Source of the DNA: Actinomycetes bacterium
Lineage (GTDB): Bacteria > Actinomycetota > CADDZG01 > JAHWKV01
Assembly: GCA_029263075.1 (NCBI GenBank)
Contig: JAJCYE010000108.1
Coordinates: 7,675 to 71,674 of the forward strand
DNA length: 64,000 nucleotides
Direction of reading: 5' to 3'
In this document: positions 8,578 to 62,417 of the stretch, one piece after another
How positions within the stretch are numbered: position 1 is the first letter of the stretch
Layout: each line of letters opens with the position of its first letter
Notes under the pieces: generated by a model
What the model was told of the DNA's origin: nothing
What the model saw: the letters and a program-made list of their open reading frames with translations, nothing else
Database searches by the model: none
Program-made: the position numbers and the translations under genes

Positions 8578-8664
8578 GGCCGACCGTAAATTAACCTGCC
8601 GGCCATCTGGGGCGGGGGTCCGGCCGGAGGTCTGCTGTTACCCTCGATTGGGTATCCACCGAGT

Positions 8665-37426: not shown

Positions 37427-38995
37427 TTGCAGGGCCCGGCGTCACGGGCCTGGTGGCGCTCGGCCGTCATCTACCAGATCTACCCCCGGTCGTTCGCCGA
37501 CGGGAACGGTGACGGGGTCGGGGACCTGGAAGGCATCGTCGGCCGGCTGGAGTATCTGGCGTGGCTGGGTATCGAAGCCGTCTGGATCTCCCCGTTCTAC
37601 CCCTCGCCCATGAAGGACTTCGGCTACGACGTTGCGGACTTCTGCGATGTCGACCCGATCTTCGGGGACCTGGGCACCTTCGACCGGTTGGTGGAGGAGG
37701 CCCACCGGCTAGGGATCCGGGTCCTGGTCGACCTGGTCCCCAACCACTCCTCCGACCAGCACCCCTGGTTCATCGAGTCCTGCAGTTCCCGGGACAACCC
37801 GAAGAGGGACTGGTACATCTGGCGGGACTCGCCGCCGGACCGGCCCCCCAACAACTGGATAGGCGCCTTTCTCGGTAGACCGGCCTGGACTTGGCACGCG
37901 GCAACCGGCCAGTGGTACCTGCATCTGTTCCTGCCCGAGCAGCCCGACCTCAACTGGGCCAACCCGCAGGTCGAGGAGGCGATGCACGACGTGGTCCGCT
38001 TCTGGCTCGACCGGGGAGCCGACGGGTTCCGCATCGACGTGGCCCACGCGATCGGCAAGGATCCGGCGCTGCCCGACTCGCCTCCCGAGCTGGTGCTGGA
38101 CCCCCGGGCGTCGGTCCACGACGATCCCGCCACCCACCCGCTGCTGCGCCGCCTGAGGGCGATGGTCCAGACCTATCCCCAGAACCCGGTGCTGGTCGGG
38201 GAGGTCCACCTGGTGGATACCGTCAAGATCGGCGAGTACTACGGCAACGACGACGAGTTGCACCTGGCCTTCAACTTCCCGGCCCTGTACGCCGACTGGA
38301 CCGCCGAGGCGTGGAAGAAGCAGCTTGCCGACGCCGACGCGGTGTTCGGACCGGTCGACGCCTGGCCCACCTGGGTCCTCAGCAACCACGACGAGCCCCG
38401 CCATCGCACCCGGTACGGCTCGGAGGAGCGGGCCCGGGCGGCGGCGGTGCTGCTGTTGACGCTGAGGGGCACGCCGTTCATCTATGCCGGGGAGGAACTG
38501 GGCCTGGAGGATGCGGTGATCCCGCCCGAGCGCAAGGTGGATCCCGGGAACCGGGACGGGTGCCGGGCCCCCATTCCCTGGGATCCGTCTGCTGATCACG
38601 GCTGGGGGCCGGACCCGTGGCTGCCCTTCCCGCCGGAGCCGGAGACCCGCAACATGGAGTCCCTGAAGGAGGACCCGGAGTCGATCCTGCACCTGTACCG
38701 CCGGCTGCTGAAGCTGCGGCGGGAGACGCCGGCGCTGAACCTGGGCAGCTTCAAGGTACTCGAGTCGCCGGAGGGGACCCTTCTTTACCAAAGGGAGCTC
38801 GGAGGCGACCGGATCTTCGTGCTGGTGAACTTCTCCGATGCCGAGGTTTCATTTGGCGATGGGCGGGCCTCAGGTGTTCAGATCCTGGTCAGCACCTACG
38901 GCGCCGGCTCAGGCGGCGAAGGCAACATCGATCTCGTTCCCGCCTCAGGTGCCGTGGTGTTCCGATCGGCCGCCCAACCCGGGAAGCCGGCCTAA
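37427..38995 (+). CDS. GH13 alpha-glucosidase / oligo-1,6-glucosidase-like
   Basis: GH13 regions are present: DLVPNH, GFRIDVAHAIGK, GEVH and SNHDEPR. N-terminus begins WWRSAVIYQIYPRSF. TTG start at 37427 with AAGGGGG RBS is an inference; the longer ORF starts inside malK. Confidence 0.8.
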   Translation: MQGPASRAWWRSAVIYQIYPRSFADGNGDGVGDLEGIVGRLEYLAWLGIEAVWISPFYPSPMKDFGYDVADFCDVDPIFGDLGTFDRLVEEAHRLGIRVLVDLVPNHSSDQHPWFIESCSSRDNPKRDWYIWRDSPPDRPPNNWIGAFLGRPAWTWHAATGQWYLHLFLPEQPDLNWANPQVEEAMHDVVRFWLDRGADGFRIDVAHAIGKDPALPDSPPELVLDPRASVHDDPATHPLLRRLRAMVQTYPQNPVLVGEVHLVDTVKIGEYYGNDDELHLAFNFPALYADWTAEAWKKQLADADAVFGPVDAWPTWVLSNHDEPRHRTRYGSEERARAAAVLLLTLRGTPFIYAGEELGLEDAVIPPERKVDPGNRDGCRAPIPWDPSADHGWGPDPWLPFPPEPETRNMESLKEDPESILHLYRRLLKLRRETPALNLGSFKVLESPEGTLLYQRELGGDRIFVLVNFSDAEVSFGDGRASGVQILVSTYGAGSGGEGNIDLVPASGAVVFRSAAQPGKPA

Positions 38996-39243
38996 CCGGC
39001 GGGAGTTTCGGGGTCGTCGCGCTTGTCGACCTCAATGGTCCACTTGCCGGCCAGCGCCCCCACGGCACCAACCGCAGCCAGCACCGGCGCCGCGATCGCT
39101 CCGACAATACCGATGGTCACCGGTATTTCGATCACAGTTTGGCCCTGGTCGTTCTTGATGACTATCCGGCGAACGTTGCCCTCGTGGATCAGTTCCTTGA
39201 CCTTTTTGACGAGATCCTGGCTGTCGTCAAACTCAAACTTCAT
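38992..39243 (-). CDS. DUF4342-like small membrane-associated protein
   Basis: LVKKVKELIHEGNVRRIVIKNDQGQTVIEIPVTIGIVGAIAAPVLAAVGAVGALAG pattern. Family assignment is from memory. Confidence 0.5.
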   Translation of the reverse strand: MKFEFDDSQDLVKKVKELIHEGNVRRIVIKNDQGQTVIEIPVTIGIVGAIAAPVLAAVGAVGALAGKWTIEVDKRDDPETPAG

Positions 39244-39305
39244 CTGACTCCTTCCGTTTGTGGTGGGCCTCTAGGCTACCGGTAGCAATCACCCGGGTTT
39301 CGTAG

Positions 39306-39350
39306 CACGAAAAAGCCCCTGCGAGCACGATGGCTCCCAGGGGCTTCTCC
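39306..39350 (-). terminator. Rho-independent terminator-like hairpin (minus strand) about 60 nt upstream of the DUF4342 start
   Basis: On the minus strand GAAGCCCCUG...CAGGGGCUUUUUCGUG forms a 7-8 bp GC stem followed by U5. Confidence 0.5.
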
Positions 39351-39618
39351 TAGGCGTCCGCTCCTGGAGAACCCAGGGAGACCGACTTTGAACTGCGCGG
39401 GCGACGGGCTTCGATCCCGCGACCTTCACCTTGACAGGGTGACGAGCTAACCGTGCTGCTCCACGCCCGCAGTGCTGTCGCCAACTATCCTAACGCTACT
39501 CGGGGCCACCCCTGTGGGGAGCATCCGATCCCAGGCACATTTCGACCCCAAGAACCCAGCAAACGTGGTGCAGTGGGCCCCGGATTGACTGTTGCGAGCG
39601 GCCGAACCAACCGGCCGG

Positions 39619-40248
39619 TTACTGCCCACCCGGCGATGGGTGCCACGCCGGGTACGGAATGCCGGCCAGCCGGTTGATCACGTAGCCCTGTGCCACCAGC
39701 AGCACGACCGCGACCATCAGGACTGCGATCTGCTGGGGTTCCCGGAGGATCCCCAGGGAGATAATTAGCGTGGTCGCCCCGGCAGGGGGATGCGGAACTC
39801 GAAGCCACACCATCGCACCGCTGGTGAGACCCAGCGATAGGGCGGCGGCACCCACCCGCGCTCCGGTGACGCTGGCGGCAAGCGCCGGCAGGGCGTCGGT
39901 CAACCCGAAGACCACCAGCGACAGGTACCCGGCGGCGGCGCCGATCAGGTGACCGCCGATGGTATTGCGCGGAGAGGAGGCCGGCAGCATTGGCGTGTAG
40001 AACAGCAGAAAAGCGGTGGGCCCAAGCGAGGGGAACACGAACGGCTCCCCGGTGACGTAGGCGACGAACGCCATTGCGCCGATCGCGATGAGCCCATTGA
40101 CGAAGGCAAACATCCCGAGCACCACTCGAGAGCTGTGCCGTTGCGTGAGCACCGGCAGGCGCATCCGGTGGGCAAGGCCGAACACGATCGCGGCCATGTC
40201 CCCACCGATCGGACCGGGTCGCTCCGGTGGATCGGAGGGCGGACTCAC
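39619..40248 (-). CDS. HPP-family membrane protein (family of plastid/cyanobacterial nitrite transporters)
   Basis: The literal HPPAGAT motif and 4-5 TM helices. The 4-bp overlap with the upstream small TM gene makes it the last gene of the Mo-enzyme operon. Confidence 0.7.
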   Translation of the reverse strand: MSPPSDPPERPGPIGGDMAAIVFGLAHRMRLPVLTQRHSSRVVLGMFAFVNGLIAIGAMAFVAYVTGEPFVFPSLGPTAFLLFYTPMLPASSPRNTIGGHLIGAAAGYLSLVVFGLTDALPALAASVTGARVGAAALSLGLTSGAMVWLRVPHPPAGATTLIISLGILREPQQIAVLMVAVVLLVAQGYVINRLAGIPYPAWHPSPGGQ

Positions 40249-40490
40249 CTCAGGTACCGGTAGAAGGCAGCCGCTCCGGCCGCCAGCAGGACCGAGAAAC
40301 CCGCCGTGATCCAGGCGAGTCCGGCATCATGCGCCAGCAGGGCATCCAGGCCCACCGTCAACAGGAAGATCTGCAGAGAGAGCAGCACCACGACGAACAC
40401 CCCCACGGCAACCGAGACCTCACGGCTTGCCCGGGCCCTCTGCGGCCGGGGAAGGTGAGGCTCCCGATGCTGATGTCTTGACGGGCTCAC
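40245..40490 (-). CDS. Small hypothetical membrane protein (2 TM)
   Basis: 81 aa, translationally coupled on both sides (4-bp overlaps). Two hydrophobic helices. Confidence 0.4.
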   Translation of the reverse strand: MSPSRHQHREPHLPRPQRARASREVSVAVGVFVVVLLSLQIFLLTVGLDALLAHDAGLAWITAGFSVLLAAGAAAFYRYLR

Positions 40491-41020
40491 CTAGACCTCT
40501 CCCCCAGGGCGGCGAGTGCCCACACCATCCCATCCTCCCTCAGCTCCACGTCGATTCGACCCAGCGGCCGTTGCGGCGGCCCGGACAGGACCTCCCCGGT
40601 ATCGGCGTCGAAGTGGCCTTCGTGGCACGGGCACTCCACTCCCCCAGACTCCGGGGAGAAGTAGACGACGCAACCCAGGTGGGTGCACTTCTGGCTGAAG
40701 GCCCGCAGCCGGCGTCCCGGGAGGTGGAAGAGGATGGCGGGGTCGGCTCCGGTCGGATAGTTGAACAGATGGGCCTGGTTCTCGGGCAGCTGGTCGAGGG
40801 CGACGATCGGGCGAGGCTCCCCCCGGTTGACCGATCGCAGCGAAGCCCACACCGCAACCCCCACGTTGCCGGCGGCGAAGCCGCCGCACGCTAGGACGAG
40901 GTAGCGCACGAACTCCCGGCGGGTCACCTCATCCTCGCCGGCCGACGTGTACGGGAAGTCCCGCCGCCACACCGGATCCGGCGGGGGCGGGGCCTGTCCG
41001 CCGCCTTGCGGATCGTTCAC
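40487..41020 (-). CDS. Tat-exported, membrane-anchored Rieske [2Fe-2S] protein (high-potential type)
   Basis: Twin-arginine motif TRREFVRYL followed by a TM helix. Rieske boxes CTHLGC and CPCHEGH carry the extra disulfide cysteines typical of bc1/b6f/arsenite-oxidase Rieske proteins. Confidence 0.85.
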
Positions 41021-41697
41021 TCCCCGGACGCCATCTCATTCAGCCCGAACGGGTCGTCCTGCCATGGGCGCTCCCCGTCGCCGGCGGTGACATCAATCGA
41101 CCCCGGAGCATCGGCGACCGTGTGCACCTTGGTGGCCACGTACTGGTTGCCGAACCACCACTCGTTGACGAGCGTTCCCTGCCGGGTGGCGGCAAACTCC
41201 TCGGGGGTGCCGAACCACAACGCCTCGCTCGGACAGACCGACGCGCACATCGGCTTCAGTCCCACCGAGGAGCGGTCGTAGCACATGTCGCACTTCATCA
41301 TCTGGTCGAATTCGGACACGTACTTCGGAACGCCGAATGGGCAGGCGAGCACGCAGTTCGAGCACCCGATGCAGCGCGGCTTGAGCGACGACTGCACCAC
41401 CCCGTCCTCGTTCTGCTTGATCGCGTCGGTCGGGCAGACCTCGGCGCAGGTCGGATCTTCGCAGTGCATGCACACCATCGGCGCGGTCTGGGTGCTGGCC
41501 GCCCGGTCGACCTCGTCCAGGTGGATCATCGAGTGGCCCCGATGGGTGCCGCACTCCTCGCACGCCTGCACGCAGGCGTTGCAGCCTATGCACCGGCTCT
41601 GGTCGATGACGAAGATGTTTTCGCCGAAGGCATCCTGGCGCGGCGGGCGCGGGGGCGGCTTGCGGCCGATGGACACCGGGACGACGTGACCGGTCAT
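41017..41697 (-). CDS. 4Fe-4S ferredoxin-type electron-transfer subunit (DmsB/HybA/NrfC-like)
   Basis: Four CxxCxxCxxxCP-type cluster motifs ([47 protein letters not shown]...CASVCP). Confidence 0.85.
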
Positions 41698-43925
41698 GGC
41701 TCCTCCTTCGGTTCGACCAGATCCATCTCCCGCTCGTCGATCACCGCCGAGCCGGGAGGTCCAACCCGCTCCAAGCGCACCGCCGAAACCTTGAACTCGG
41801 GAATCTTGGATAACGGGTCGAGCGCCCGGTTGGTGAGTTGGTTGGCCGCCCGGTTGCCGGCCCAGTGGTAGGGGATGAAGATCGTGTCCGGGCGGATGGT
41901 GGATACCACCCTGGCGGGCAGCGTCATCGAGCCCCTTCGGGAGGTCACCCTCACCTGGTCGCCGGTCTCGATCCCGTGCCGGCCGGCAAGGTTGGGATGG
42001 ATCTCACACAGCGGCTCCGGGTACTGGGCGACCAGGGGGCCGATCCGCCGGGTCTGGGTGCCCGACAGATACTGGCTCACCACCCGGCCCGTGGTCAGCC
42101 ACACCGGATAGTCGGTGTCGACCACCTCCGCCGGGGGCCGGTAGCGCACCGGGTTGAACCTGCCCCGCCCGTCCTCGGTGTAGAAGAGCCCTCCCTCATA
42201 GAGGCGCCGGATGCCCGGGTGGCCCTCCTCCGGGCAGGGCCAGAACACCCCGAGCTCCTGTTCGATCCGTTCCCAGGTGATGCCGTAGTAATCGGCACTG
42301 CCGCCCTTCGAAGCCACCCGCAGTTCGTCGAACATCTCCCGCGACGAGGAGTACGGGAAATACTTGCCCTTTCCGAGGCGGCGGGCCAGGTCGCATAGGA
42401 TCTCCCAGTCCAGTCGAGCGTTTCCCGGCGGCGACTTCGACGGGTTGAGCTTGATCACCCGCCCTTCCAGGCTTGTCGACGTTCCTTCGTCCTCCTCGTG
42501 CAGCGACCCGGGCAGAACGATGTCGGCGTGGAACCCGGTCTCAGGTAGGAAGAAGTCGATGATGGCGTAGAACTCCAGCTTGTCGAGTGCCTCTTTGGTG
42601 AACCTCGTGTCGGGCAGCGAGACGACCGGGTTGAAGCAGATCGACAGCAGTCCTTTGATCTCGCCCCGGTGGATCGCCTCCACGATCTCCTGAGCGGTCA
42701 GCCCTTTGCCGGGGATCTCGTCCACCTCACAACCCCAGACCGACGCAACGTAGGCTCGATGTTCGGGGTTGGTGATGTCGCGGTTGCCCGGGAGCTGCTC
42801 GCACTTGTGCCCGTGCTCCCGGCCACCCTGGCCGTTGCCCTGCCCGGTGATGGTCGTGACCCCGCAGCCTGGCTTTCCGTACTTACCGGTGGCCAGGCCG
42901 AGGTTGATGCATGCCCACACGTTCTCCACCCCCTTGGTGTGGTGCTCAAGCCCGCGGGCGTGCAGCAGCATCCCGGTCTTGGAGGTTCCCCACCACTCCG
43001 CCGCCTGCTCGATGCGGCCGGCCGGCACCCCGGTGACCCCCTCCGCCCAGCGGGGGGTGTGGTCCTTGACCGCCTCAGCGGCGGCCTCAAATCCCGTGGT
43101 GTGGTTGTCGATAAAGTCGTGGTCCAGCCAGTCCCGCTCGATGAGAACGTGCAGCATTGCACCCAGCAGCGCCGAGTCGGTCCCCGGGCGGAGCCCGAGA
43201 AACAGATCTGCGGTTCGGGCGGCCGGCGTGACCCGCGGGTCGGCGAAGATCAGCTTCGCCCCGTTGTCCCGGGCGCGCCAGATCCAGCTGGTGGTAATCG
43301 GGGCACACTCGGCGATGTTGGCGCCGATGACGAACACCACCTCGGCCAGCGGGATGTCGCTCCATGGGTTGGATGCCCGGTCAATCCCCAAAGCCTTCTT
43401 GTTCGCCACTCCGGCCGACACCATGCACAGCCGCCCGTTGTAGTCCAGGTTGGCTGTTCCCAGCGCCAGCCGGGCGAACTTGCCGATCATGTAGGACTTC
43501 TCGTTGTTGAGCGAGACCCCCGACAGCATGGCGAACGAGTCCTGCCCGTGAGCCTGCTGGATCCGGCGGATCTCGTTGACCGTGCGGTCCAGGGCGTGGT
43601 CCCACGACACCGTGCGAAACCCGTCGACCGAGCCCGGGTCCCGCTCCAGCGGATCGAGCAGGCGATCGGGGTGGGCGTTCTGCAGGTAGCGCTTCACCCC
43701 CTTGGGGCAGAGCTTGCCCTGATTGAAGGGGAACTCGTACCAGGGTTCGAAGCCGACCACCTCGTCATCTTTGACCTTGAGCTTGATGCCGCACTGCTGT
43801 CCGCAGAAGCAGCAGTGGGTCTTCACCTCCCGGTCGGCCTCTACCCCGGCGTTCCACCCCCCGGGGGGCTCCTGGTTCAGGTGTGGCCCGTAGCGGGCAA
43901 CCAGCTCCTGCTCGGTGAGCGGCAT
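41694..43925 (-). CDS. Molybdopterin oxidoreductase catalytic subunit, NasC/NarB-type (nitrate-reductase-like); no Tat signal
   Basis: N-terminal Fe-S motif [10 protein letters not shown], a [12 protein letters not shown] block and a C-terminal MGD-binding domain. No RR signal, so cytoplasmic. ATG at 43925 chosen; the ORF-track GTG start at 43991 would overlap the upstream gene by 58 bp. Confidence 0.8.
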
Positions 43926-43933
43926 CTTTGCCA

Positions 43934-44968
43934 CTATCCGAACCCCCCAACCGCCCGCCCCTGCGCAAAAGCCACCATGAGGCGGCGGCACTTGGGGCAG
44001 TTGTCCTGATAGCTACCGCCGCCGCCCTCGAGGTCGTAGTCGAAACCCACCTGCGGCAGCACCTGTTTAAGATCGCCCATCTGCAACTGGGAAGCGAAGG
44101 GCTCACCGCACCGGGAACACATCTGCTGCGCCCCATCGGCCCCCTCCCGCTTGTAGTAAGCCGCTCCCAGGTGAGCCGGGCGCTGGAAGATGTGAAACAG
44201 CTTGCCGAACGGGATGTACATAAGGCCGAGGATCACCGTGAGGGCATGCACGGTGTTGAGGAAGACGTAGAACCTGCCCCCCATCCACAGGTTGGAGGCG
44301 GTCAGCGCCAGACCGGTCACGGACACCGCGAATAGACCAGCGAGGGCCAAAAAGTCGTTCGACCGCTCCACCGCCAGCGCTCCCGGGTCCCGCAACCGGC
44401 GGGAGAGGAAGATGAAGACCCCCGCCAGCACCAGCACGGCGGAGATGTCCAGCAGGTGGAAGTTGACCCATCCGACAAAGCTGCGGCTGTCGAAGGTCAT
44501 AGTGCCGAGGCCGCCGATGAAGGTCCGGTACTGCCGGCCGTTCTGGCCGACCGACTCGAAATGCAACAGCCCGAAGGTTAACGGGAAGGTCACGAGCGCC
44601 GCCAGCACGCACCCCCAGAAGATGAGCTGATGCGCCAGCCAGCGGGCGCGGGAGCGGCCCCAGATGAACGACTGCAGCAGCAGCTTGTTGACCACCAGGC
44701 CGGGGACCGCCGCGGCGTTGCGAGCCCTGGCGCCCGGCTTGAGAAAGGCACTCCAGGCCCGGCGGTGCAGGCGGGCGGTGGGAGGTCGCCGGAGCCAGAT
44801 CAGGTATCGGTAGACCACACCGAAGATGGCGAACAGCGTGCCGAACAGGTAGCCGACGAGGGCGGCGTCGAACCAGCGCAAGTTGCCGCTACCGAACAGG
44901 GCGATACCGAGTGCTACTGCCACTGCCAGGATGCCCCAGGTAGCAGCCCGTCGATCGATTCTGGCCAT
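43934..44968 (-). CDS. NarI-like (nitrate reductase gamma-like) dihaem cytochrome b membrane subunit with C-terminal CxxC...CxxC zinc-ribbon
   Basis: About 6 TM helices. His pairs sit in two helices (AHQ...LLH about 22 apart; NTVH...LFH 18 apart), like NarI haem ligands. C-terminal soluble tail has CSRCGEPF...CPKCRR. Confidence 0.5.
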
Positions 44969-45072: not shown

Positions 45073-45927
45073 TCAGGGCCAGGCTGCACTCAGCAGCGGA
45101 GTGGGCAGCGGACCGGTTCCACTGTTGGTTAAAGCGAGCACGGATGAGTCACCGGACCTAATGTCCGCGGCTACCGTCACCGACCCGGGCCCGCTGTCGG
45201 ACGACGAACCGGAGGAGGTCACCACCCGGTAGGCGGGCGGGGTGGGGATCGCGGCATCGGTCGGAGAGGGCAATGCAGCCCGCACGTCCAAAAGCGCGGA
45301 CCCCGGTTGCTCCCACCTTGCGGTGGCCTCCAGTTTTCCGCTGCGAGTTGGGTTCATCTCGAACGAAGGACACCCCCGCGGGGCGCAGGCTGCGTCCTGG
45401 GGGGCCGGGTCCAGGTTGGGCAGCTGGAACAGCACCGCCCGGTCGGCGGCGGTGTAGGAAAGGGCAACCTCCTGCAGGTCGACCAGGGTGGAGCGCCCGG
45501 CGAGTGAGATCTCGGCTCCCCTGATACCGGGGGCGACCGGGAGGTCGATTGGACTTCCGGCAACCGGGAGGACGCACAGCCTGCTGGGCGGAACGCTGGC
45601 GGGATCGGTGACCGAGCAGACGGTGACCGACTTCAACTCCTGGTCGATCTCGCCGGTGAGGGTGATTCTAATGTTGGGTGTGGAGGGGTTGACGAGAATC
45701 CGCACGCTGTTTCCGCCCTTTTCCGCACCGACCTTGAGCCTGAGTCGGTGAATTCGCACGGTGGTCTGGGCGTCCTCGTTGACCGATTCGGCCACGGCGG
45801 TGGGGGACACGGACGCTGCTCCCTTTTCCTGGCGGGCTGCTGCTCCGCCGGTGCGTGCGCCACCGCATGCCCCCAGAAGCAGGGTAAGGGTTGCGGCCAC
45901 TGCTAGGAGATTTCGAAAAGGGACCAC
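45073..45927 (-). CDS. Hypothetical lipoprotein
   Basis: Signal peptide plus lipobox LLGAC. Located upstream of the Mo-enzyme operon on the same strand. Confidence 0.5.
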   Translation of the reverse strand: MVPFRNLLAVAATLTLLLGACGGARTGGAAARQEKGAASVSPTAVAESVNEDAQTTVRIHRLRLKVGAEKGGNSVRILVNPSTPNIRITLTGEIDQELKSVTVCSVTDPASVPPSRLCVLPVAGSPIDLPVAPGIRGAEISLAGRSTLVDLQEVALSYTAADRAVLFQLPNLDPAPQDAACAPRGCPSFEMNPTRSGKLEATARWEQPGSALLDVRAALPSPTDAAIPTPPAYRVVTSSGSSSDSGPGSVTVAADIRSGDSSVLALTNSGTGPLPTPLLSAAWP

Positions 45928-46074
45928 CAGGCAAAGCTACCCGGCGCCTCGGGTCGGGCAAACTTCGACCGGCGAACCACGGACGCCGGAGGGGGGTTTA
46001 GTTCTTTGAGATCTGGGGAGACTTGCCAGAAGTGTTGTGCCCCAGCAGCACCCGTTTCCTTAAGGAGGGAATCA

Positions 46075-46572
46075 ATGGCGCAGACCGCCGCAAGAGTTGA
46101 CACCGCAACGCTACGAAGCTACCTGACCGACCACCTTGCAGGTTCGGTCCTGGGTGTCGGGGTTGCCGAAAAGCTTGCAGAGCAAAACGCAGGCAACGAG
46201 TTCTTCCAGCAGCTCGTGAAAGACATCAAAGAGGACCAGGATGCGCTCGAGCGCCTTATGGAAAAGGTCGGCGCCGAGGAAAACCCCGTCAAGAGCGTGG
46301 GTGCCAAGGTTGCCCAGTCGATCGGTACCGGCTTCTCCGGCGCCGGCAGTTCGGGTGCCGCCGGTGAAATGGGTGGCGTTCGTGAGTGCGAGGGCCTGAT
46401 GATGGGAATCACCGGCAAACTGTGCCTGTGGACCACCTTGAAGGAGATCTCCGACTCCGACGAGAGGCTGGCGGGGTTCAACCTCGACCGTCTGATTCAA
46501 AACGCCACCGACCAGCGCGCCGGCGTGGAGGCCGAGCGACTCAAGATGTCCAGGAAGGCCTTCCTGCGCTGA
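46075..46572 (+). CDS. Hypothetical protein (helical, possibly ferritin-like/DUF892-like)
   Basis: GGAGGG RBS before the ATG at 46075. No confident family assignment. Confidence 0.4.
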   Translation: MAQTAARVDTATLRSYLTDHLAGSVLGVGVAEKLAEQNAGNEFFQQLVKDIKEDQDALERLMEKVGAEENPVKSVGAKVAQSIGTGFSGAGSSGAAGEMGGVRECEGLMMGITGKLCLWTTLKEISDSDERLAGFNLDRLIQNATDQRAGVEAERLKMSRKAFLR

Positions 46573-55691: not shown

Positions 55692-56207
55692 TCATCCGCT
55701 GATCACCCCCCGGTTGCCAACTTCCCTCGCGGATCTCCTAGGAGGGACCCGGTTTGTTCGAGACGCCGTTGTTATGCAACTGACTATGGCAATCTCTGCA
55801 TTGTTAGTGCTGATCAGCCAGTAGGACCCAGCTGGAACCTCGAATGGAGTGAAATCATTCTCTACTACGCGAAAGTTCACCAAAGCATTGGACGGTCGGT
55901 TTCTCACAGCATCGAAGTCCTTCGGAGACCCCTCACCGACGTATAGACGTGTCGTTCCGACCTCGGATTCGCCGACATGACCGTGGCTGAATCCATACGC
56001 CGTGGCGTACAACTCTCCCCCTGTGGTGGTGAATCTAGCGGGCTCACCCCATGGCTGCCCAAGTTCAACCCGAGCCATTCCACCCGGACCGCACTCAGGA
56101 ACTAGGCCGGTCTTCTCGGGATCATCCCCGCATCCGGAAAGGAACAACAAGATCGCGAGCGCCCACGCTCCCCTCGTTCGCGTTCGGTCCCTCCGTGGTT
56201 TGGTCAC
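55692..56207 (-). CDS. Hypothetical lipoprotein (island gene)
   Basis: Signal peptide plus lipobox LSGC. Lower-GC codon usage. Confidence 0.5.
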   Translation of the reverse strand: MTKPRRDRTRTRGAWALAILLFLSGCGDDPEKTGLVPECGPGGMARVELGQPWGEPARFTTTGGELYATAYGFSHGHVGESEVGTTRLYVGEGSPKDFDAVRNRPSNALVNFRVVENDFTPFEVPAGSYWLISTNNAEIAIVSCITTASRTNRVPPRRSAREVGNRGVISG

Positions 56208-56294
56208 GGGCCTTCATCCAGATTCAGCGTCTCTGAAACCACACTACCCGTGAGACGACTCTTCACGGTTACTTGCAGCGAATCTGAAGCTTGG

Positions 56295-56855
56295 TCAAGG
56301 ATCGGAAGGTGAATAAGTACACCGGCCGTCAGCGTCGGCATTAAGCGTAATGAACTCATCGATCCCACCGTAGGAGACGTCCACCTTCTCAACGCCTGGG
56401 TTGCCTTGCCCGTCTTCAAAGCAGCACACGTAGATACCATAGGTTTCGCCTTCAGTTGGTGAACCCGGATACCTAACCAGCTGCTCACGCCCCACGCCGA
56501 CCCCACCAGCACCAATTCCATTCAGCCGAAACGCATGGACCCCTGCTGGAGCACTCGGCATCGTGACCGTGGCCTCAACTACACCGGATTCGTTGGCCAC
56601 CACCGAGCCCAGAACGGTGGGATCGGAGTGGAGACTTACGTCGACTTGGCTGCCGGGGCTGAAACCTCCGGCCAAAATGGTTACTGGGCTTCCGGCCGTT
56701 GTGTCGAAAGGAGCATTTCTGAAGCCCTGTCCGTCGAAGGTCGGTTCACTGGCTGATTTAAAGGCCGCTTGCGAACCGCACTGCTCCGAGCCTCCGTAGG
56801 TCTTTAGCACTTCGCAAGCCTGAATAGCGTGGCCCTCGAGATGGGCACACCTCAA
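56295..56855 (-). CDS. Hypothetical Cys/Gly-rich protein (island gene)
   Basis: 186-aa ORF just downstream of the membrane-protein gene. No recognised domain. Confidence 0.35.
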   Translation of the reverse strand: MRCAHLEGHAIQACEVLKTYGGSEQCGSQAAFKSASEPTFDGQGFRNAPFDTTAGSPVTILAGGFSPGSQVDVSLHSDPTVLGSVVANESGVVEATVTMPSAPAGVHAFRLNGIGAGGVGVGREQLVRYPGSPTEGETYGIYVCCFEDGQGNPGVEKVDVSYGGIDEFITLNADADGRCTYSPSDP

Positions 56856-56874
56856 TTGAGGGGTAGTCGCTGCG

Positions 56875-57576
56875 CTATAAGAATTGCTCTATACGTACGG
56901 GGACAGTTGACGTCACCTTAATAGATACGATCGTTAACTCCTCGAGTGGAAAGCCCTCTAGCTCCACGTTGTCTAACCCTTTCGTAGCGACGAATTTGCA
57001 GTTTTTGTCCTGGTTATTCGCCGAAGAGTCTCGAACCTCATCCACCCATCCGCTCATCAGCTCTCTTGCATCATTGCATGTTTCTTTGACGCCGGAGGAG
57101 GTCTGCCAAACGATTTTGGCTTCAGGGAACTGATCTGCCCTGCCCCCAGAGGACCTCGTCGTCCAGTTCGATGAGGCTGGGAAACTTTCTGCTACGCGAA
57201 GCTGGAGCTCGTAGGGCTCGCGAAGAAGCTTCTCCCTAAGGTCAAGGGCCGAATTGGCCATGAATATCGATGGGATCGCTAGCAAAAGGGCAATAGCGGC
57301 TGCCCAAATGCGCAGTCTTCTGTAAATGAGTCCAGCGCCGACGACCATTAGGCCAAGCAAAACAAGGCCAAGAGGAAAGTAGAGCTTCGAAGTAACTACT
57401 TTGCCAACTTCGTCGGCGTAGCTGACGCCTGGCTCGGAGAGGATCACAATCGACCGCACCATTGCTCGACCGGTCAAGAATCCGGAGATGAGAACCACCA
57501 GAGCAGAAAACGCCAAAGCGGCCCACGCAGCATCGAAGCGCCGGGCTGGCGGCGCGATTCCTCCCGAAGTGATCAT
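56875..57576 (-). CDS. Hypothetical membrane protein (3 TM + C-terminal soluble domain), translationally coupled to the giant gene
   Basis: 4-bp overlap with the stop of the 1614-aa gene. Three hydrophobic helices at the N-terminus. Confidence 0.5.
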   Translation of the reverse strand: MITSGGIAPPARRFDAAWAALAFSALVVLISGFLTGRAMVRSIVILSEPGVSYADEVGKVVTSKLYFPLGLVLLGLMVVGAGLIYRRLRIWAAAIALLLAIPSIFMANSALDLREKLLREPYELQLRVAESFPASSNWTTRSSGGRADQFPEAKIVWQTSSGVKETCNDARELMSGWVDEVRDSSANNQDKNCKFVATKGLDNVELEGFPLEELTIVSIKVTSTVPVRIEQFL

Positions 57577-60500
57577 GGCTGACTCTCCTCCACCACGCTT
57601 ACTAGAGCGGAATGCATCATTGAGTAACCGAGGGCATTCGGATGAAACGTTCTGTCGTCAGCTATGAGGTTGACCCACGCTGGTTCAGGTTGATGAAGTG
57701 CGTCATAAACGTCCTGAGGATCGTTGTTAGGCGTCAGTCCTGTGATCCACTCTTCGGGATTACAAACCTGATGATCATCGAACAGACCTTCCCCGATAAT
57801 GGCTGGCTCAGAGGAAAAGCCGCCACTTACTAGCTCGCCCCCAGATCGCACGATCTGGATGTTTTGAGCGTAATCCTCTGCGTTCACCGTGCTTACGGCG
57901 TCAATGATCACTGCATTAAATTGGGCGAACCGCGCACGTAGCCAATCTATCTCCTCAACACTTAGTAGCCCATCTCCCATGCACCGAACCGGTGCTATTC
58001 CCGGGGGAACGGGAACTGGCACGACATCGATTCTTTTGTTCTCATTGGTGAACATTTGAGGGTACGTAAAGACAATCAACTTAGCTTTCTCAGCCTTGTT
58101 GAGAATGTCTCTGTAGACGTCGGTCAGGTCATCCTCCATGCCGGCTATCTCAGTCGTTAGGTCCCGCGGTCCCCCAGGCTCGAACTGGGGTCGGCAGTCT
58201 CCCGGCCGCAGGCATGCATCGAGAACGTCGATCCAACGCAGATCGTTTCCACCCACCGAGATTGTCACGAGTTCGGTGTAATCCGGCAGGTCTTGGATCT
58301 GGCCTGGTATTTCAGTGGTCCAGTTACCTGCGCATGCCTTGAACTCAAAATCCCAGTCACTTTGACCTGCAGCGAGGAGCGGCCCGTATGCCTTACTCGA
58401 TCTCTTGCAGTCGTCGGCGTTGTTGTCCCAATCATAGGGACCAGCACCCTGGCCCGAGGAGAACGAATCACCAAGCGCCCAATAGGTGAACTGGTGAGGT
58501 GTGATGGGTTCCGAGGGCAGTGAAGGTTCCCCTTGACCGAGGTCGCTTTCGGCAACGACAGTGAACGTATACGCCATCCCATTAATGAGTCCGGTCACGT
58601 TGCTGGACGTAGCGTCTGGATCACTGATGGATAATCCAGCACATTCACAGACCGGATTGGAAATGATCGTGTAACCGGTGAGAGCGGCTCCATTCATAAG
58701 CTTCGGCGCATCCCATTCGATTAGAGCCGACGCGATTCCCGATGAACCTCGGACGTTCGTCGGTGCTTCCGGAGGCTCACGATCCGTCTCCGCCTGAGCC
58801 GGGAGTGATCGGTCGCCAATTCCTCTGCCATTTTCCGCAACGATTTCAAGCGTGTAGGTTGTAGCCGGATTCAATCCCTCAATGATCGTTGCGTATGTGG
58901 TGCCAGAGACTGATTTCCCCGTGCACTGGGAGCAGCTCGGAGAAACCTCTACTTTGTAAGCCGTAATGGGACCTCCATTGTCGCCAGGTATCCCATCTCT
59001 GAGGGGTGGCGGGTCCCAGCTGACCGTCGCTCTACGCAGGCCGCCAGATGCCTGGACGTTCACAGCCGCGAAGGGCTTTCCCGCAAATGACCCGCTGTCG
59101 GAGGCAGGTGAGTGATCACTGATGCCGAACTGGTTGGACGCCTGGACGGTGAAGAAGTACGGAGTCCCGTTAATCAGCCCGCTTACAGCCATCTGGGTGG
59201 TGGATGCTCCAACCGCTTCACTTCGAACGATCGCCTGCGTTGTCTCCCGATAGATGTTCACGGTATAGCCGGTAATGGAGCTGCCGTTGTCGCCGGGAAT
59301 GCCGTCTCTGGGTGCTGGCGGAGACCACGAAACCGTGGCTTCCTCACCAACGATCGTCGCGGTCGGCTTGGCCGGCGCAAACGGCACGCCGAGCGGGCTG
59401 ACCGTGTTCGACTGGGCAGACTCCGGACTGGCAACGATAAACAGCGTTGTAGCGATCACTTTGAAGTAGACCGGAGTTGCGTTTGGAAGATCGGTGATCG
59501 TCGCCGAGGTCGTTGCCGAGGTCTTCGGGGGACCGACCACAGCGCCATCAGATGCTCGGTAGGTCTTCACCGTATAACCGGTCACCAGCGGGAGGATCCC
59601 GCCGACTGAGGGGGCATTCCATGTGACCGTGGCCTCCCCGTCGCCCGCGGTAGCTTGAACGTTGGTCGGCGTGAGGATGTCCGCCGATTGAGTTACCGCA
59701 TTTGCCGAGGGGCTTGAGGCAGCACCGGGCGCAAGGATTCCGCCAATTACGTTCATCGCCGCAACCACAAACTTGTAGGTGTGGTCAGCAAGCAGGCCCT
59801 CGAAGTGCGCCGTGTTGGAGGACAAGCAGCTCCCCGCGCACTCAATCGGCGCCGGGCTTGGGCCGCCCCCCTGGTCGATCGCGGTGATAAGCATCTTGGT
59901 GATGGGTGAGCCGCCGTCGTCTGTCGGAGAGGTCCAAGTGACCTTGGCCATCTCAACCATACCGGTGCCAGTAACGTCGGTGGGAGCAGACGGACGTTGC
60001 GCAGCAATGACTACAACTGCGTTGGTTCCTGCAGCCGTCGCACTGTGGCTGACGGTGTTGGTGGCATACACGTAGAACCTATAGGTCGTGCCGGCCGTCA
60101 GATCGTCGAAGAAATCCTCCGTGCAGGTTGCGCAGGGGGTGCTGTATTTGTTCGCGTACTCAAGGGCCCCATTGGACAAGACCCTAAAGACGTAGACGAC
60201 GTGGACGCCCATGGTGGCGCCGCCGGTGCTCGACGATAAGGTCCAGCTCACTTTGACTCTACCGTCGGGCTGAGCGGTGGCCACTGCGTTTGTCGGAGGA
60301 CTTGGAATGGTCTTGGGCGTGACCGTGTTGGTTGTTGCTACCGTCCCCCATTGTCCGGCGTTGTAGGGAAAGATGTAGAAGAACTGGCTGGCGTTGGGCA
60401 GACCGGTGAAGCTGGTGGAGGTACAAGGCCCCGGGCTACATGAAACGGCCTTGCCGTCCCCCGATGGAGTGTTGTTGGCGTAATAGGGGTACACGGCATA

Positions 60501-62417
60501 AAGCAGCACCGGCGACCAGGGGTTTGTTGGTGCGGCGCCCCAATTGACCGTGACTGTTCCGTCCGGGTTGGCGGTAGCCGTCGCGTTTGCGGGTGCGCCG
60601 GGGACGCTGGCGCCGGGAACCGTGATCGTGCGGCATCCACCCCCTAGCAACGGGTTGGTCCCAGAGCCCGCAATATTCATGCCGTAGAAGCAGACGTTGT
60701 GGGTGCCGGGTGCGGCCGAGATCACGGCGCTGAAGCCGTGATTGTCGCCATAGCCGGGATAGTGGAGCCCAACGTCGGGGCGGGAGGTGTTGGCGTCGAG
60801 CACAACAAGTTTAGAACCCACGTAGATGTGGACCTGGGTCGAGGCGGCGGTGTCTGGGTCGATGACCCAGCCCCTGACCCGGATTCCTCCCGCAACCGGA
60901 GTCGACTCGTCGACGCTTCCGATCGGGTCACCCGTCGGGCCGGCCGTGCTGTAGTCGACCGACAGGTAGGGACCATTGCCGGCCTCAAACGACAGGTACT
61001 TTTTGTACTGGTTGTTGTCGGCTTCATTGGGGGCCCTGAACGAGAACGATCCTGCAGTCTGTCCTTCGGCAGCCATCTGCGCCACCTGCGGGGTGACCAC
61101 CCAGTGGGCCAGGCGGTTGGGACACGCGCCGCTGTGCCAGCCTCCGGTCGCCTGGTTGGAGTCGATGGAAGCTCCCGGGAAGGTCGTCATCGACGATCCG
61201 CTCCAGGGCTGGGTCACCCGGTAGACCGGGCCCGGACCGACGTTGCAGTTCCATGAATGCTCTTCGACGGCGTACAGGGTGGCGGAGTTGATTTGTTTGC
61301 CCGCCAGGGGTGCGGTATCGAAATGAGCGTAGGACTGCCCGATATGAACCCCGCCGTCGTAGGTGCCGACCTTGAGCTCGGGGTCGGCTGAGTTGTTGCG
61401 GGTGAAGTTGCGCATGACGTAGGTGTCATCGCCCCAGGTTCGAACCGCATGGATCTGGGGGTCCACGGTGACCGGCCAGACCCTCTCAGGGCTGCTGAGC
61501 CACTCCCGGCCCCGGTCTAGAGAAACCTCCAGCGCCACCCCGTCTTTGTGCGGGATCAGCGCATAGTCCACTGCGGTCGACACCGCAGACTCACCGGAGC
61601 GGGGGTCCAGGTTGGAGTCGAACATGAATCCATGGGGGGTCCGGGCCCACTCGTCACCCTTGGAATCCTTGTAGACGACATCGCCGTTGGCCTCGATCGA
61701 GGCCGTCAGGCCCTGAAGGATCAGAGGAAAGACAAACCGGGTGGGGGCATCGGGCGAGGAGAGGATCAGATCCTCTTTCAGGCCGTTTCTTTGTGAGGTG
61801 AGCCGGACATCGGTGAACTTTTTGACGTTGGAGTAGGTGACGGCGTCCTTGGCGACCTTGCCTTTGACCTTGGCGGCCTGATCGATGCCGAAAGAGACCG
61901 AGTGCGTGGAGTCGAGCTGAAGCTTGGCAAGGGTTTTAGCATTGGAGTAGTCCGCGATCTCCAGCCCAAAGCTGTTGGCCTTGTTCTTCAGCTTGCCTCC
62001 GGCAACCGGGGTAAGGGTGGAGTCGATCTCGACCCACTTACCATCCTTCTCAAAGTTGACGGCGTCTGAGTACAGGCGGGTCTCGAACTGGCCGGGCTTG
62101 GTGCCCGAGAAGGTCCTGGACGAAGCCGTCCGCTTCTCGATCAGTTCTTTGTTGGGGGTCCACGCCTCAACCGGAGGCGGGGTCTTGGACGGTTCGATCG
62201 GATACGCCTTGGGCGAGGTATCGGTGACATCTGGGGGCAGGACCAGGGCCGGCGCGCCTTTGGGCAGGGACTTCGGTGAGCTAACCTGGGTCGGCTCTTC
62301 AAGAGCCGAGGCCGTGGATGGGGTTAACCCCAGCAGCATCGACATCAACATGATCATCAGCGTGATTCTGCTGATCTGTGCGCGTGAGGTTGAAGCCCGG
62401 CGATACTTCCTTGGCAT
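57573..62417 (-). CDS. Giant secreted multidomain protein: signal peptide, N-terminal beta-rich domain, array of about 8 fibronectin-III-like repeats, C-terminal SGNH/GDSL hydrolase
   Basis: Signal peptide ...STASA/LEEP. Repeated FN3-like blocks (GSPITKM, VTGYTVKTY, GSSITGYTVNIY, GGPITAYKVEV, LTGYTIIS). SGNH blocks YWALGDSFSSG (GDS), ISVGGNDL (GxND) and a DxxH-containing tail. Confidence 0.8.
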   Translation of the reverse strand: MPRKYRRASTSRAQISRITLMIMLMSMLLGLTPSTASALEEPTQVSSPKSLPKGAPALVLPPDVTDTSPKAYPIEPSKTPPPVEAWTPNKELIEKRTASSRTFSGTKPGQFETRLYSDAVNFEKDGKWVEIDSTLTPVAGGKLKNKANSFGLEIADYSNAKTLAKLQLDSTHSVSFGIDQAAKVKGKVAKDAVTYSNVKKFTDVRLTSQRNGLKEDLILSSPDAPTRFVFPLILQGLTASIEANGDVVYKDSKGDEWARTPHGFMFDSNLDPRSGESAVSTAVDYALIPHKDGVALEVSLDRGREWLSSPERVWPVTVDPQIHAVRTWGDDTYVMRNFTRNNSADPELKVGTYDGGVHIGQSYAHFDTAPLAGKQINSATLYAVEEHSWNCNVGPGPVYRVTQPWSGSSMTTFPGASIDSNQATGGWHSGACPNRLAHWVVTPQVAQMAAEGQTAGSFSFRAPNEADNNQYKKYLSFEAGNGPYLSVDYSTAGPTGDPIGSVDESTPVAGGIRVRGWVIDPDTAASTQVHIYVGSKLVVLDANTSRPDVGLHYPGYGDNHGFSAVISAAPGTHNVCFYGMNIAGSGTNPLLGGGCRTITVPGASVPGAPANATATANPDGTVTVNWGAAPTNPWSPVLLYAVYPYYANNTPSGDGKAVSCSPGPCTSTSFTGLPNASQFFYIFPYNAGQWGTVATTNTVTPKTIPSPPTNAVATAQPDGRVKVSWTLSSSTGGATMGVHVVYVFRVLSNGALEYANKYSTPCATCTEDFFDDLTAGTTYRFYVYATNTVSHSATAAGTNAVVVIAAQRPSAPTDVTGTGMVEMAKVTWTSPTDDGGSPITKMLITAIDQGGGPSPAPIECAGSCLSSNTAHFEGLLADHTYKFVVAAMNVIGGILAPGAASSPSANAVTQSADILTPTNVQATAGDGEATVTWNAPSVGGILPLVTGYTVKTYRASDGAVVGPPKTSATTSATITDLPNATPVYFKVIATTLFIVASPESAQSNTVSPLGVPFAPAKPTATIVGEEATVSWSPPAPRDGIPGDNGSSITGYTVNIYRETTQAIVRSEAVGASTTQMAVSGLINGTPYFFTVQASNQFGISDHSPASDSGSFAGKPFAAVNVQASGGLRRATVSWDPPPLRDGIPGDNGGPITAYKVEVSPSCSQCTGKSVSGTTYATIIEGLNPATTYTLEIVAENGRGIGDRSLPAQAETDREPPEAPTNVRGSSGIASALIEWDAPKLMNGAALTGYTIISNPVCECAGLSISDPDATSSNVTGLINGMAYTFTVVAESDLGQGEPSLPSEPITPHQFTYWALGDSFSSGQGAGPYDWDNNADDCKRSSKAYGPLLAAGQSDWDFEFKACAGNWTTEIPGQIQDLPDYTELVTISVGGNDLRWIDVLDACLRPGDCRPQFEPGGPRDLTTEIAGMEDDLTDVYRDILNKAEKAKLIVFTYPQMFTNENKRIDVVPVPVPPGIAPVRCMGDGLLSVEEIDWLRARFAQFNAVIIDAVSTVNAEDYAQNIQIVRSGGELVSGGFSSEPAIIGEGLFDDHQVCNPEEWITGLTPNNDPQDVYDALHQPEPAWVNLIADDRTFHPNALGYSMMHSALVSVVEESQP

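Follow-up and report, generated by a model that had tools for sequence, protein, structure and literature searches.

A conserved gene cluster for a probable membrane-bound nitrate reductase that combines a Nas/Nap-type catalytic subunit with a NarI-fold anchor and a Rieske protein

We present an analysis of a gene cluster in a stretch of 64,000 nucleotides from an Actinomycetes bacterium (assembly GCA_029263075.1, contig JAJCYE010000108.1, positions 7,675 to 71,674 of the forward strand), referred to in the following as the window. The cluster consists of six consecutive open reading frames (ORFs) on the minus strand, spanning positions 39619-44968, and it probably encodes a membrane-bound nitrate reductase accompanied by a candidate anion channel. 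An initial annotation, made from the sequence alone, had described six tightly packed minus-strand genes with named domains; the ORF listing contains all six at the coordinates then given, and the Pfam and NCBIfam searches agree with the description. Starting from the upstream end, the genes are as follows:

43934-44968, minus strand: membrane anchor with a NarI fold, 344 aa
41694-43925, minus strand: MopB, predicted catalytic subunit of the molybdenum bis-pyranopterin guanine dinucleotide (Mo-bisPGD) type, 743 aa from the ATG at 43925
41017-41697, minus strand: iron-sulfur (FeS) subunit, 226 aa
40487-41020, minus strand: Rieske protein, 177 aa
40245-40490, minus strand: DUF6755 protein, 81 aa
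39619-40248, minus strand: HPP protein, 209 aa from the GTG at 40248, or 192 aa from the ATG at 40197

The longest ORF of the MopB gene reaches position 43991, and two 100%-identical metagenome contigs have independently been called with the start that yields 743 aa. The anchor and MopB genes are separated by an 8-nt gap, the MopB and FeS genes overlap in ATGA with AAGGAGG just before it, and the FeS/Rieske and Rieske/DUF6755 junctions are both GTGA overlaps. The overlaps or gaps of 4-8 bp that were initially reported throughout the cluster are thus present at the first four junctions, but the last one is ambiguous: the DUF6755 and HPP genes either share a 4-nt GTGA overlap (HPP start at GTG 40248) or are separated by a 47-nt gap (start at ATG 40197, which is the choice of other gene callers). 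Scans for consensus promoters and terminators inside the cluster gave nothing above the shuffled expectation.

The distribution of the unit was surveyed through its anchor, with an alignment of nine sequences as the query and one genome per GTDB species as the target. Confirmed anchor relatives are carried by at least 584 species genomes, and the protein has more than 3,600 close relatives in a 90%-clustered database, mostly unnamed and some labelled 'MFS transporter', and 1,095 relatives among 50%-identity representatives. The gene-neighbourhood counts given below rest on the best 80 loci, which were read by tblastn and by a codon-usage log-likelihood gene caller trained on the core genes; its calls are close to the existing annotation of Iamia, with a few differing start sites. 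These loci come from Acidimicrobiia, Acidobacteriota, Planctomycetota, Gemmatimonadota, Deinococcus, Armatimonadota and Myxococcota, and some are cited here by our own numbers (L003 and the like). Sequence identity places the bacterium of the window among the Acidimicrobiia, close to Iamia.

The order anchor-MopB-FeS-Rieske-DUF6755 recurs in dozens of loci from several phyla, so the neighbourhood is conserved across genomes. Of the 59 loci that extend at least 1.8 kb past MopB, 58 have FeS and Rieske genes behind it, and in 54 loci, among them loci of Acidobacteriota, Planctomycetota and Deinococcus, the Rieske gene is immediately followed by a DUF6755 gene. The recurrence of this order is far beyond chance, and the five genes almost certainly encode one conserved complex; their co-conservation bears out the earlier proposal of one atypical membrane-bound molybdoenzyme unit. 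A stray fragment of a bc complex, in which the Rieske and cytochrome b genes would be unrelated to the molybdoenzyme, had been named as a possibility and was rejected, since the Rieske and anchor genes are conserved together with MopB in those same 58 loci.

Exceptional arrangements were also noted. Two loci of Chthonomonadaceae (L048 and L049) have anchor-MopB without adjoining FeS or Rieske genes, and the order in L066 is FeS-Rieske-DUF6755-anchor-(390 aa)-MopB-NarK; because of these arrangements, the FeS, Rieske and DUF6755 genes seem to move as a block. Among copies in metagenome-assembled genomes (L004, L016, L028 and L053), those labelled Burkholderiales, Ardenticatenales and Chthoniobacterales have copies at 64-82% identity to the anchor of Acidimicrobiia, and one is labelled Heliobacteriaceae and resembles the loci of Acidobacteriota and Planctomycetota. 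These contigs are probably mis-binned.

MopB contains the Pfam domains Molybdop_Fe4S4, Molybdopterin and Molydop_binding. Its N-terminal [4Fe-4S] motif is HCCFCGQQC...LCPKG and its predicted Mo-ligand Cys sits in RLCMVSAG; the Cys motif and the [12 protein letters not shown] block are seen directly in the sequence, and the motifs RLC-M-VSAG and [11 protein letters not shown] match the Nas/Nap type. The family was aligned with NasA of Sinorhizobium and Rhodobacter, the bifunctional Nas of Mycobacterium, NapA of Agrobacterium and two FdhF proteins. The Cys-Met and GGRE motifs are invariant across the MopB family, which has Cys-Met and Thr-Gly-Gln at the positions where the formate dehydrogenase (Fdh) references have Cys or Sec followed by His (RVCH/RLCH) and R-GQ. 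The corresponding residues of FdhH, His141 and Arg333, are catalytically essential. Formate dehydrogenase was rejected as an identification of MopB on account of these replacements. The score against the Fdh-alpha model TIGR01591 is 573 bits (cutoff 666).

Among NCBIfam hidden Markov models (HMMs), the best match to MopB is NasC (NF047855) with 783.5 bits, under the cutoff of 1100. The haloarchaeal NasA model gives 380 bits (cutoff 1000), the NapA models give 238-253 bits (cutoffs above 900) and narG TIGR01580 gives 44.9 bits (cutoff 1084); NarG is also longer (~1200 aa, compared to ~740 aa) and binds Mo through Asp, whereas MopB has the Cys-Met ligand motif. Among PDB structures, cytoplasmic formate dehydrogenases and monomeric NapA come closest. 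Across five phyla, family members share 58-88% identity with the window protein, compared to 29-36% for NasA, NasN, NapA and FdhF; taken separately, the window protein has 31-34% identity to the Nas enzymes of Sinorhizobium, Rhodobacter and Mycobacterium and 31-36% to FdhF. A tblastn search of 72,556 plasmids recovered four records at 60-80% (for example, Deinococcus sp. NW-56 at 66.8%), while the remaining 858 records are below 60%, with at most 37% among the matches listed. The family forms a separate clade in a neighbor-joining tree. The HMM scores, the identities and the tree agree that MopB does not fall inside a characterized clade, and the initial assignment to the NasC/NarB type therefore holds for the active site, which is of Nas/Nap type, but not for orthology. 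A twin-arginine (RR) motif is present in none of the 79 MopB homologues, and a signal-less N-terminal extension of ~35 residues is conserved in all of them. Judging from these motifs and scores, MopB is a predicted Mo-bisPGD enzyme that forms a clade of its own, has an active site of the Nas/Nap type and lacks an export signal. One locus of Microthrixaceae (L029) contains a second, different MopB (753 aa, N-terminal CPLCEAMC) a few genes upstream of the unit.

The FeS subunit matches Pfam Fer4_11, among others, and its four Cys groups would bind four [4Fe-4S] clusters; it lacks both a signal peptide and a transmembrane (TM) helix. It scores ~100 bits against each of the NCBIfam models for DmsB, FDH-beta and HybA, all under their cutoffs, and its PDB matches are FdnH (1kqf_B, E 2e-26) and PsrB (2vpw_B). 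The protein is consequently of the DmsB/FdnH/PsrB type, as the term DmsB-like ferredoxin in the initial annotation had it, and differs from the ~500-aa NarH subunit (narH TIGR01660, 38.2 bits, cutoff 524).

The anchor scores 19.2 bits against Pfam Nitrate_red_gam, which is under the cutoff, and matches the NCBIfam models TmcC, QmoC and HmcE weakly. Because a sequence search of the PDB gave no match, the protein was placed by a fold search, which returned the NarI/EtfD fold. An AlphaFold2 model made with 35 diverse homologues (predicted local distance difference test score 94.5) has six TM helices with both termini on the cytoplasmic side, a three-strand sheet inserted on the outer face at residues 135-160, and, at the C-terminal end, a cytoplasmic domain that contains four Cys residues (C284, C287, C324 and C327). 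In 109 sequences, H113, H241 and H259 are conserved at 99-100%, H171 at 82%, H136 at 79% and the four Cys at 97-100%. H241 and H259 align with NarI H187 and H205 in the family HMM, and H113 is, from its position, the likely counterpart of NarI H56. The position that would match NarI H66 is occupied by Ala, Ser or Gly in the 109 sequences and never by His; since MAFFT places NarI helix II unreliably against the anchor family, the H56 and H66 correspondences are tentative. The missing haem ligand might be supplied by H171 or H136. Thus, of the description 'NarI-like dihaem b' given initially, the NarI fold stands, while the word dihaem is unproven with three of the four haem His conserved.

In the model, the conserved H113/H259 pair and the four-Cys domain lie on the cytoplasmic side, and the NarI-fold anchors with solved structures, namely NarI and EtfD, pass electrons to or from cytoplasmic FeS modules. 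EtfD and other anchors of this fold (HdrE, DsrM, QmoC and TmcC) resemble the window protein in being membrane haem b domains that serve such modules. EtfD has its own HdrD-like FeS domains and a NarI-fold domain with a single haem and a quinone site on the cytoplasmic side, and it reduces menaquinone (PMC13083937). The window anchor differs in being a separate protein with three or four conserved His, a four-Cys domain, and Rieske and MopB partners.

The genes found beside the core in other loci bear on the substrate. The HPP protein of the window matches Pfam TM_HPP (PF04982) with 94.1 bits (cutoff 27.2) and would be an accessory anion channel or transporter and a candidate path for nitrite or nitrate; an HPP protein moves nitrite in cyanobacteria and chloroplasts, according to Maeda 2014 as cited in PMC7438415. 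HPP occupies a core-adjacent position in 17 of the 80 loci, each of which bears the label Acidimicrobiia, Acidimicrobiales or unclassified Actinomycetes. Elsewhere, the genes beside the core include a SLAC1/TehA-type gene (19 loci), a NarK-like gene of the major facilitator superfamily (MFS) (TIGR00886, 222-243 bits; 24 loci, fusions included) and CLC (four proteins), and at least one of HPP, SLAC1/TehA and NarK-like is present in 50 of the 55 loci that extend far enough. The initial suggestion that HPP is the exit for nitrite gains from this interchange of anion transporters at the HPP position, although HPP itself is an accessory of some loci and not part of the core. Ten loci, most of which bear labels of Acidobacteriota (Acidobacteriaceae, Bryobacteraceae, Terriglobia, Vicinamibacterales), encode an anchor with the NarK-like domain fused to its N-terminal end, for example in a protein of 760 aa at L058 6747-9029. 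The fusion fixes this end of the anchor on the cytoplasmic side and links the complex to nitrate/nitrite transport; a transporter fused to the anchor makes sense only if the substrate is used inside the cell.

Genes of nitric oxide (NO) stress are found near the unit in 33 of the 80 loci, including a RIC/YtfE di-iron protein in 27 and a group III truncated haemoglobin (PDB 2ig3, E 2.5e-7) in 11. Other recurrent neighbours are YwiC-like, Rrf2, NnrS-like, Crp/Fnr-like, Usp and MarR genes. The linkage and fusion of NarK, the anion channels, RIC/YtfE, the truncated haemoglobin, NnrS and Rrf2 support the earlier proposal of a quinol/Rieske-linked cytoplasmic nitrate reductase, and we regard it as probable that the complex reduces nitrate.

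Two other readings of the enzyme's chemistry have to be weighed against these neighbours. In the first, the complex would use another cytoplasmic substrate (nitrite, formate or another oxyanion such as chlorate, selenate or tellurite, in the forward or the reverse direction) or run as an oxidase, with electrons passing from the FeS subunit through haem b to the Rieske protein and on to high-potential carriers. MopB is indeed about as near to FdhF as to Nas and joins Fdh in the rough tree, an outward Rieske domain would be a natural exit to such carriers, and SLAC1/TehA belongs to a tellurite-resistance/dicarboxylate transporter family. However, the family has Met and Thr at the Fdh His and Arg positions with Cys-Met and GGRE invariant, its neighbours are NarK-like carriers and NO-stress genes, and the known nitrite oxidoreductases belong to the NarG-type clade, unlike MopB. 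We consider this reading very improbable.

In the second, the complex would be purely assimilatory, that is, a quinone-fed Nas supplied through a membrane module, with nitrite handed to NirA or NirBD encoded elsewhere. NasC is the best curated model match to MopB, and the two types are alike in size, in the lack of a signal peptide, in the type of FS0 motif and in the Cys-Met and GGRE motifs. Most carriers belong to lineages of aerobic heterotrophs, and mycobacteria, which use respiratory NarGHI for assimilation, offer a precedent. In Iamia sp. SCSIO 61187, a NIR_SIR reductase gene and a FocA/NirC channel gene lie ~8 kb upstream of the operon, which would suit assimilation. By tblastn, however, this is the only one of the 80 loci with a NIR_SIR gene nearby, and the nitrite reductase families NIR_SIR and NirB are not among the 25 commonest in ~300 scanned neighbour proteins. 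The neighbours that do recur, namely nitrite/NO-stress genes, anion exporters, Crp/Fnr, Usp and Rrf2, are typical of dissimilatory nitrate reduction and agree better with a dissimilatory or redox-balancing role that yields nitrite than with assimilation alone. Moreover, MopB differs from NasC, NasA and NarB in that it stays under the NasC cutoff, lacks an NADH or ferredoxin module, is not linked to nirBD or nirA, and is embedded in a membrane complex. A purely assimilatory enzyme is therefore an unlikely explanation in our view.

The same Iamia locus (L003) has genes for a NirK-like multicopper protein and a cupredoxin directly upstream of the operon (8250-9907). The combination of NirK-like, cupredoxin, NIR_SIR and FocA genes was found by tblastn in one of the 80 loci, and the Pfam scan found multicopper oxidase domains in two neighbour proteins of Acidimicrobiia.

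The Rieske protein is arranged as a cytoplasmic N-terminal tail (PVWRRDFP), the sequence TRREFVR, one TM helix and an outward Rieske domain with the boxes CTHLGC and CPCH. It matches the Pfam Rieske family, and its best NCBIfam matches are b6f PetC and actinobacterial QcrA, with scores well under the cutoffs (45.7 vs 250) and merely 19 bits for NirD; its PDB matches are the b6f and bc Rieske proteins, the Thermus Rieske protein and AioB. The RRxF motif with the TM helix and the CPCH box are each present in all 57 homologues, and the CxHxxC box in 37 of them (as the pattern C.H.GC) and in 11 inspected among the other 20. A tail of the form W-R/K-x-D-F-P is conserved before the RR motif, which suggests that a contact on the cytoplasmic side has been retained. 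As far as the sequence allows a judgment, the protein has a motif of the twin-arginine translocation (Tat) type, a TM anchor that looks uncleaved, and cluster boxes of the bc type, and because of the motif, the anchor and the disulfide-type boxes the Rieske domain is placed outside. CPCH is followed by EGxF, and the Ser and Tyr hydrogen-bond donors, which raise the potential in bc1-type Rieske proteins, are absent. Consequently, the initial description of a periplasmic high-potential Rieske protein agrees with the Tat motif and the disulfide boxes, while the high potential is uncertain.

The fifth protein of the core matches DUF6755 (PF20540) with 28.6 bits (cutoff 27). It is a two-helix membrane hairpin in which no His, Cys or Met is conserved, and it is probably a structural subunit.

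With a Tat-type motif on the Rieske protein and none on MopB, the side of the membrane on which the enzyme works has to be considered. MopB, the FeS subunit and the Rieske protein could be exported together on the Rieske signal, which would give a periplasmic nitrate reductase resembling Nap or the haloarchaeal pNar and fed by the anchor. Arsenite oxidase provides the precedent: a signal-less MopB protein exported on the Tat signal of its Rieske subunit. The initial annotation had reasoned that the catalytic subunit lacks a Tat signal and so is cytoplasmic; the lack extends to all 79 homologues, yet, given that AioA hitch-hikes on its Rieske partner, it is by itself no proof of a cytoplasmic site. 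The only Tat-type motif of the unit is the universally conserved one of the Rieske protein, AioB is among the PDB relatives of that protein, and pNar pairs a Rieske protein with an outward-facing nitrate reductase. Several features nevertheless point to the inside. NarK-like carriers accompany 24 loci and are fused to the anchor in ten of these; the NarI fold, the cytoplasmic haem ligands and the conserved cytoplasmic four-Cys domain call for a cytoplasmic partner; the conserved Rieske tail suggests a retained cytoplasmic contact; and no export chaperone of the NapD/TorD type is among the recurrent or commonest families of the scanned neighbours. We regard an outward-facing enzyme as distinctly unlikely and place MopB and the FeS subunit on the cytoplasmic face, because MopB is signal-less, NarK is linked and fused to the unit, the haem ligands and the four-Cys domain lie on that side, and NarI and EtfD set the precedent.

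The unit can also be compared with the outward-facing systems themselves. It resembles AioAB and IdrAB in joining a signal-less MopB protein to a Rieske small subunit with a Tat signal. Arsenite oxidase was nevertheless rejected as an identification on the HMM scores, which for the AioA and AioB models (TIGR02693 and TIGR02694) are 144.8 vs a cutoff of 359 and 32.6 vs 95.65 bits, and on the gene context, which here is one of nitrate, nitrite and NO. Aio also has no four-cluster FeS subunit, no NarI-fold anchor and no Cys ligand to Mo. Nap differs in that MopB has no Tat motif and scores far below the NapA cutoffs, and the unit contains no cytochrome c gene, where NapB and NapC would be expected. 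The haloarchaeal pNar consists of a Tat-exported, outward-facing NarG-type subunit, a bc-type cytochrome b (NarC) and a Rieske protein (NarB). The likeness to pNar lies in the combination of a nitrate reductase with a Rieske protein that has a Tat motif and with a membrane b-type cytochrome, and the difference is that MopB is not of the NarG type and is not Tat-exported, that the anchor has the NarI fold instead of being a cytochrome b, and that the NarK fusions imply a cytoplasmic site. The initial annotation had named pNar as the only Rieske-containing nitrate reductase known to it, but other nitrate reductases have a Rieske partner too, since NasG of the Paracoccus Nas system is a soluble Rieske-type ferredoxin (PMC3475470).

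The reading that we favor, if only moderately over its negation, is that the products of the locus are a membrane-bound nitrate reductase with five subunits and an undescribed architecture, together with an HPP anion channel, and that the enzyme works in the following way. MopB and the FeS subunit would be bound to the anchor from the cytoplasmic side, in the manner of NarGH on NarI. Quinol, probably menaquinol in this actinobacterium, would be oxidized at the outer face, where the anchor and the Rieske domain would together make up the site, with the protons released outside. The electrons would cross the membrane through the haem or haems b of the anchor and continue through the four [4Fe-4S] clusters and the cluster of MopB to molybdenum. 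Nitrate would enter by a NarK-like carrier or a channel and be reduced to nitrite inside, and the exit for nitrite would be HPP here and SLAC1/TehA, NarK or CLC in other lineages. Overall, this would amount to an electrogenic redox loop like that of NarGHI.

The resemblance to NarGHI is confined to a part of the system. The alike features are the alignment of two anchor His residues with NarI and the linkage of NarK-type transporters. The anchor differs from NarI in its six TM helices, the additional outer sheet, the cytoplasmic four-Cys domain and the lack of an H66 equivalent, and the operon has no NarJ (the NarJ/TorD family has no match in the six window proteins and is not among the recurrent or commonest families of the scanned neighbours) and has the Rieske and DUF6755 proteins in addition. 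Of the components that define NarGHI, only the NarI fold is present; NarG, NarH and NarJ are not.

Several observations weigh against the proposed nitrate reductase and its redox loop. Just three of the four haem ligands of NarI are conserved in the anchor, and its closest structural neighbour, EtfD, has a single haem and a quinone site on the cytoplasmic side (PMC13083937); for these two reasons an outer-face quinol site and a full transmembrane haem wire are not assured. MopB has no more than 31-34% identity to bona fide Nas and 31-36% to FdhF, and is placed beside Fdh in the rough neighbor-joining tree. The absence of a Tat signal can mislead, as arsenite oxidase illustrates. The 64 kb of the window contain no gene for NarK, RIC or a regulator: tblastn with NarK, RIC, Rrf2, SLAC1, YwiC, NnrS, NirK-like, NIR_SIR and FocA sequences found none in it. 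A loop of the Nar type does not need a Rieske centre, and no partner or acceptor for the Rieske protein is encoded in the unit. Finally, it should be kept in mind that we infer the substrate, cofactors, haem number, quinol site, orientation and direction of electron flow.

What the Rieske centre does is the least certain part of the mechanism, and it is here that a bifurcating scheme, analogous to that of the bc complexes, has to be considered. In such a scheme, the electrons of quinol oxidized at the outer face would be split: one electron would pass to the Rieske protein and from there to an outer acceptor (such as cytochrome c, cupredoxin or NirK), and the other, the low-potential electron of the semiquinone, through the haem or haems b and the FeS clusters to Mo, so that nitrate would take the place of the Qi-site quinone as the sink of the b branch. 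The Rieske protein is of the bc/b6f type, with CxHxxC and CPCH boxes, a Tat-type anchor, an outward domain and best matches to PetC and QcrA; the anchor and disulfide boxes hold across the family, and the protein is strictly co-conserved with a membrane protein of the haem b type. Plain menaquinol would perhaps be a poor donor for a Nas-type enzyme, because such enzymes are normally fed by low-potential donors (ferredoxin or NADH). The NirK-like and cupredoxin genes directly upstream of the Iamia operon and the multicopper oxidase genes near two Acidimicrobiia loci could represent outer acceptors. The conserved unit, however, includes no cytochrome c, cupredoxin or other acceptor for the Rieske protein. 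The anchor is not a bc-type cytochrome b and no PEWY-like Qo signature was recognized in it; indeed, none of the six proteins matches Cytochrome_B or cytochrome c, c1, f or QcrC, and the b-type partner is wired to a molybdoenzyme. The EGxF after CPCH stands in place of the Ser and Tyr donors typical of a high-potential Rieske protein, and a stoichiometric coupling of two sinks is hypothetical. Bifurcation is accordingly an improbable scheme in our estimate, and the Nar-like loop remains the reading that we prefer.

The subunit combination had been thought undescribed from the outset, and a search of open-access full-text literature found no paper that describes it; in NCBIfam, no model reaches its cutoff for any subunit. 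The annotation of these genes is generic or wrong. In Deinococcus sp. NW-56, the RefSeq names of the five proteins are 'MFS transporter', 'molybdopterin oxidoreductase family protein', '4Fe-4S dicluster domain-containing protein', 'Rieske 2Fe-2S domain-containing protein' and 'DUF6755 family protein'. The RefSeq/PGAP name 'MFS transporter' is attached to anchors in both Iamia (WP_219941908, L003 10001-11044) and Deinococcus (WP_104992190, L084 7762-8874), and it probably spread to them from the annotation of the fusions of NarK and anchor.

The usual teaching divides the nitrate reductases of prokaryotes into three kinds, namely Nar, Nap and Nas. If the proposed reading is true, the unit would be a fourth architecture, with chemistry like that of Nas and Nap, wiring like that of Nar, and an added outward Rieske protein. 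The anchor is not rare, given that the at least 584 species-level genomes that carry it belong to abundant lineages of soil, freshwater, marine and wastewater environments. Since NasC is the best-scoring model for MopB, marker-gene surveys probably count it as assimilatory nasA/narB; if so, they misassign nitrite production and its consequences for NO and N2O. Should the bifurcating scheme be true instead, the complex would represent an unrecognized class of energy-converting 'Rieske/NarI-type' quinol oxidase, and a large share of the genes that surveys of soil and marine samples count as 'assimilatory nasA/narB' in Acidimicrobiia, Acidobacteriota, Planctomycetota and Gemmatimonadota would instead encode a respiratory enzyme. 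Either way, the unit poses the mechanistic question of why a NarI-fold haem protein should have a Rieske centre attached to it, and cultured carriers exist in Iamia sp. SCSIO 61187, Deinococcus sp. NW-56 and D. rhizophilus MIMF12.

The surroundings of the cluster in the window contain several further features:

45073-45927, minus strand: lipoprotein-like ORF of 284 aa, 104 nt upstream of the anchor gene and on the same strand
46006-46572, plus strand: ORF of 188 aa, beyond the 284-aa ORF
39395-39470, minus strand: tRNA-Asp(GTC) gene, ~150 nt downstream of the HPP stop and on the same strand
~39305-39345, minus strand: GC-rich hairpin with a T-run, beyond the tRNA-Asp gene
38992-39243: DUF4342 ORF
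57573-62417, minus strand: protein of 1614 aa with five fibronectin-III repeats and a GDSL lipase domain

The 284-aa and 188-aa ORFs have no Pfam match, and neither they nor the DUF4342 ORF have homologues in any related locus; the immediate neighbours of the cluster therefore lie outside the conserved system. The 284-aa ORF could still be co-transcribed with the operon, and at the other end the operon transcript may read through into the tRNA-Asp gene or end before it. The GC content of the window at 56000-60000 is 0.555-0.587, compared to ~0.65 elsewhere, and this lower-GC region with the gene at 57573-62417 may have been horizontally acquired.

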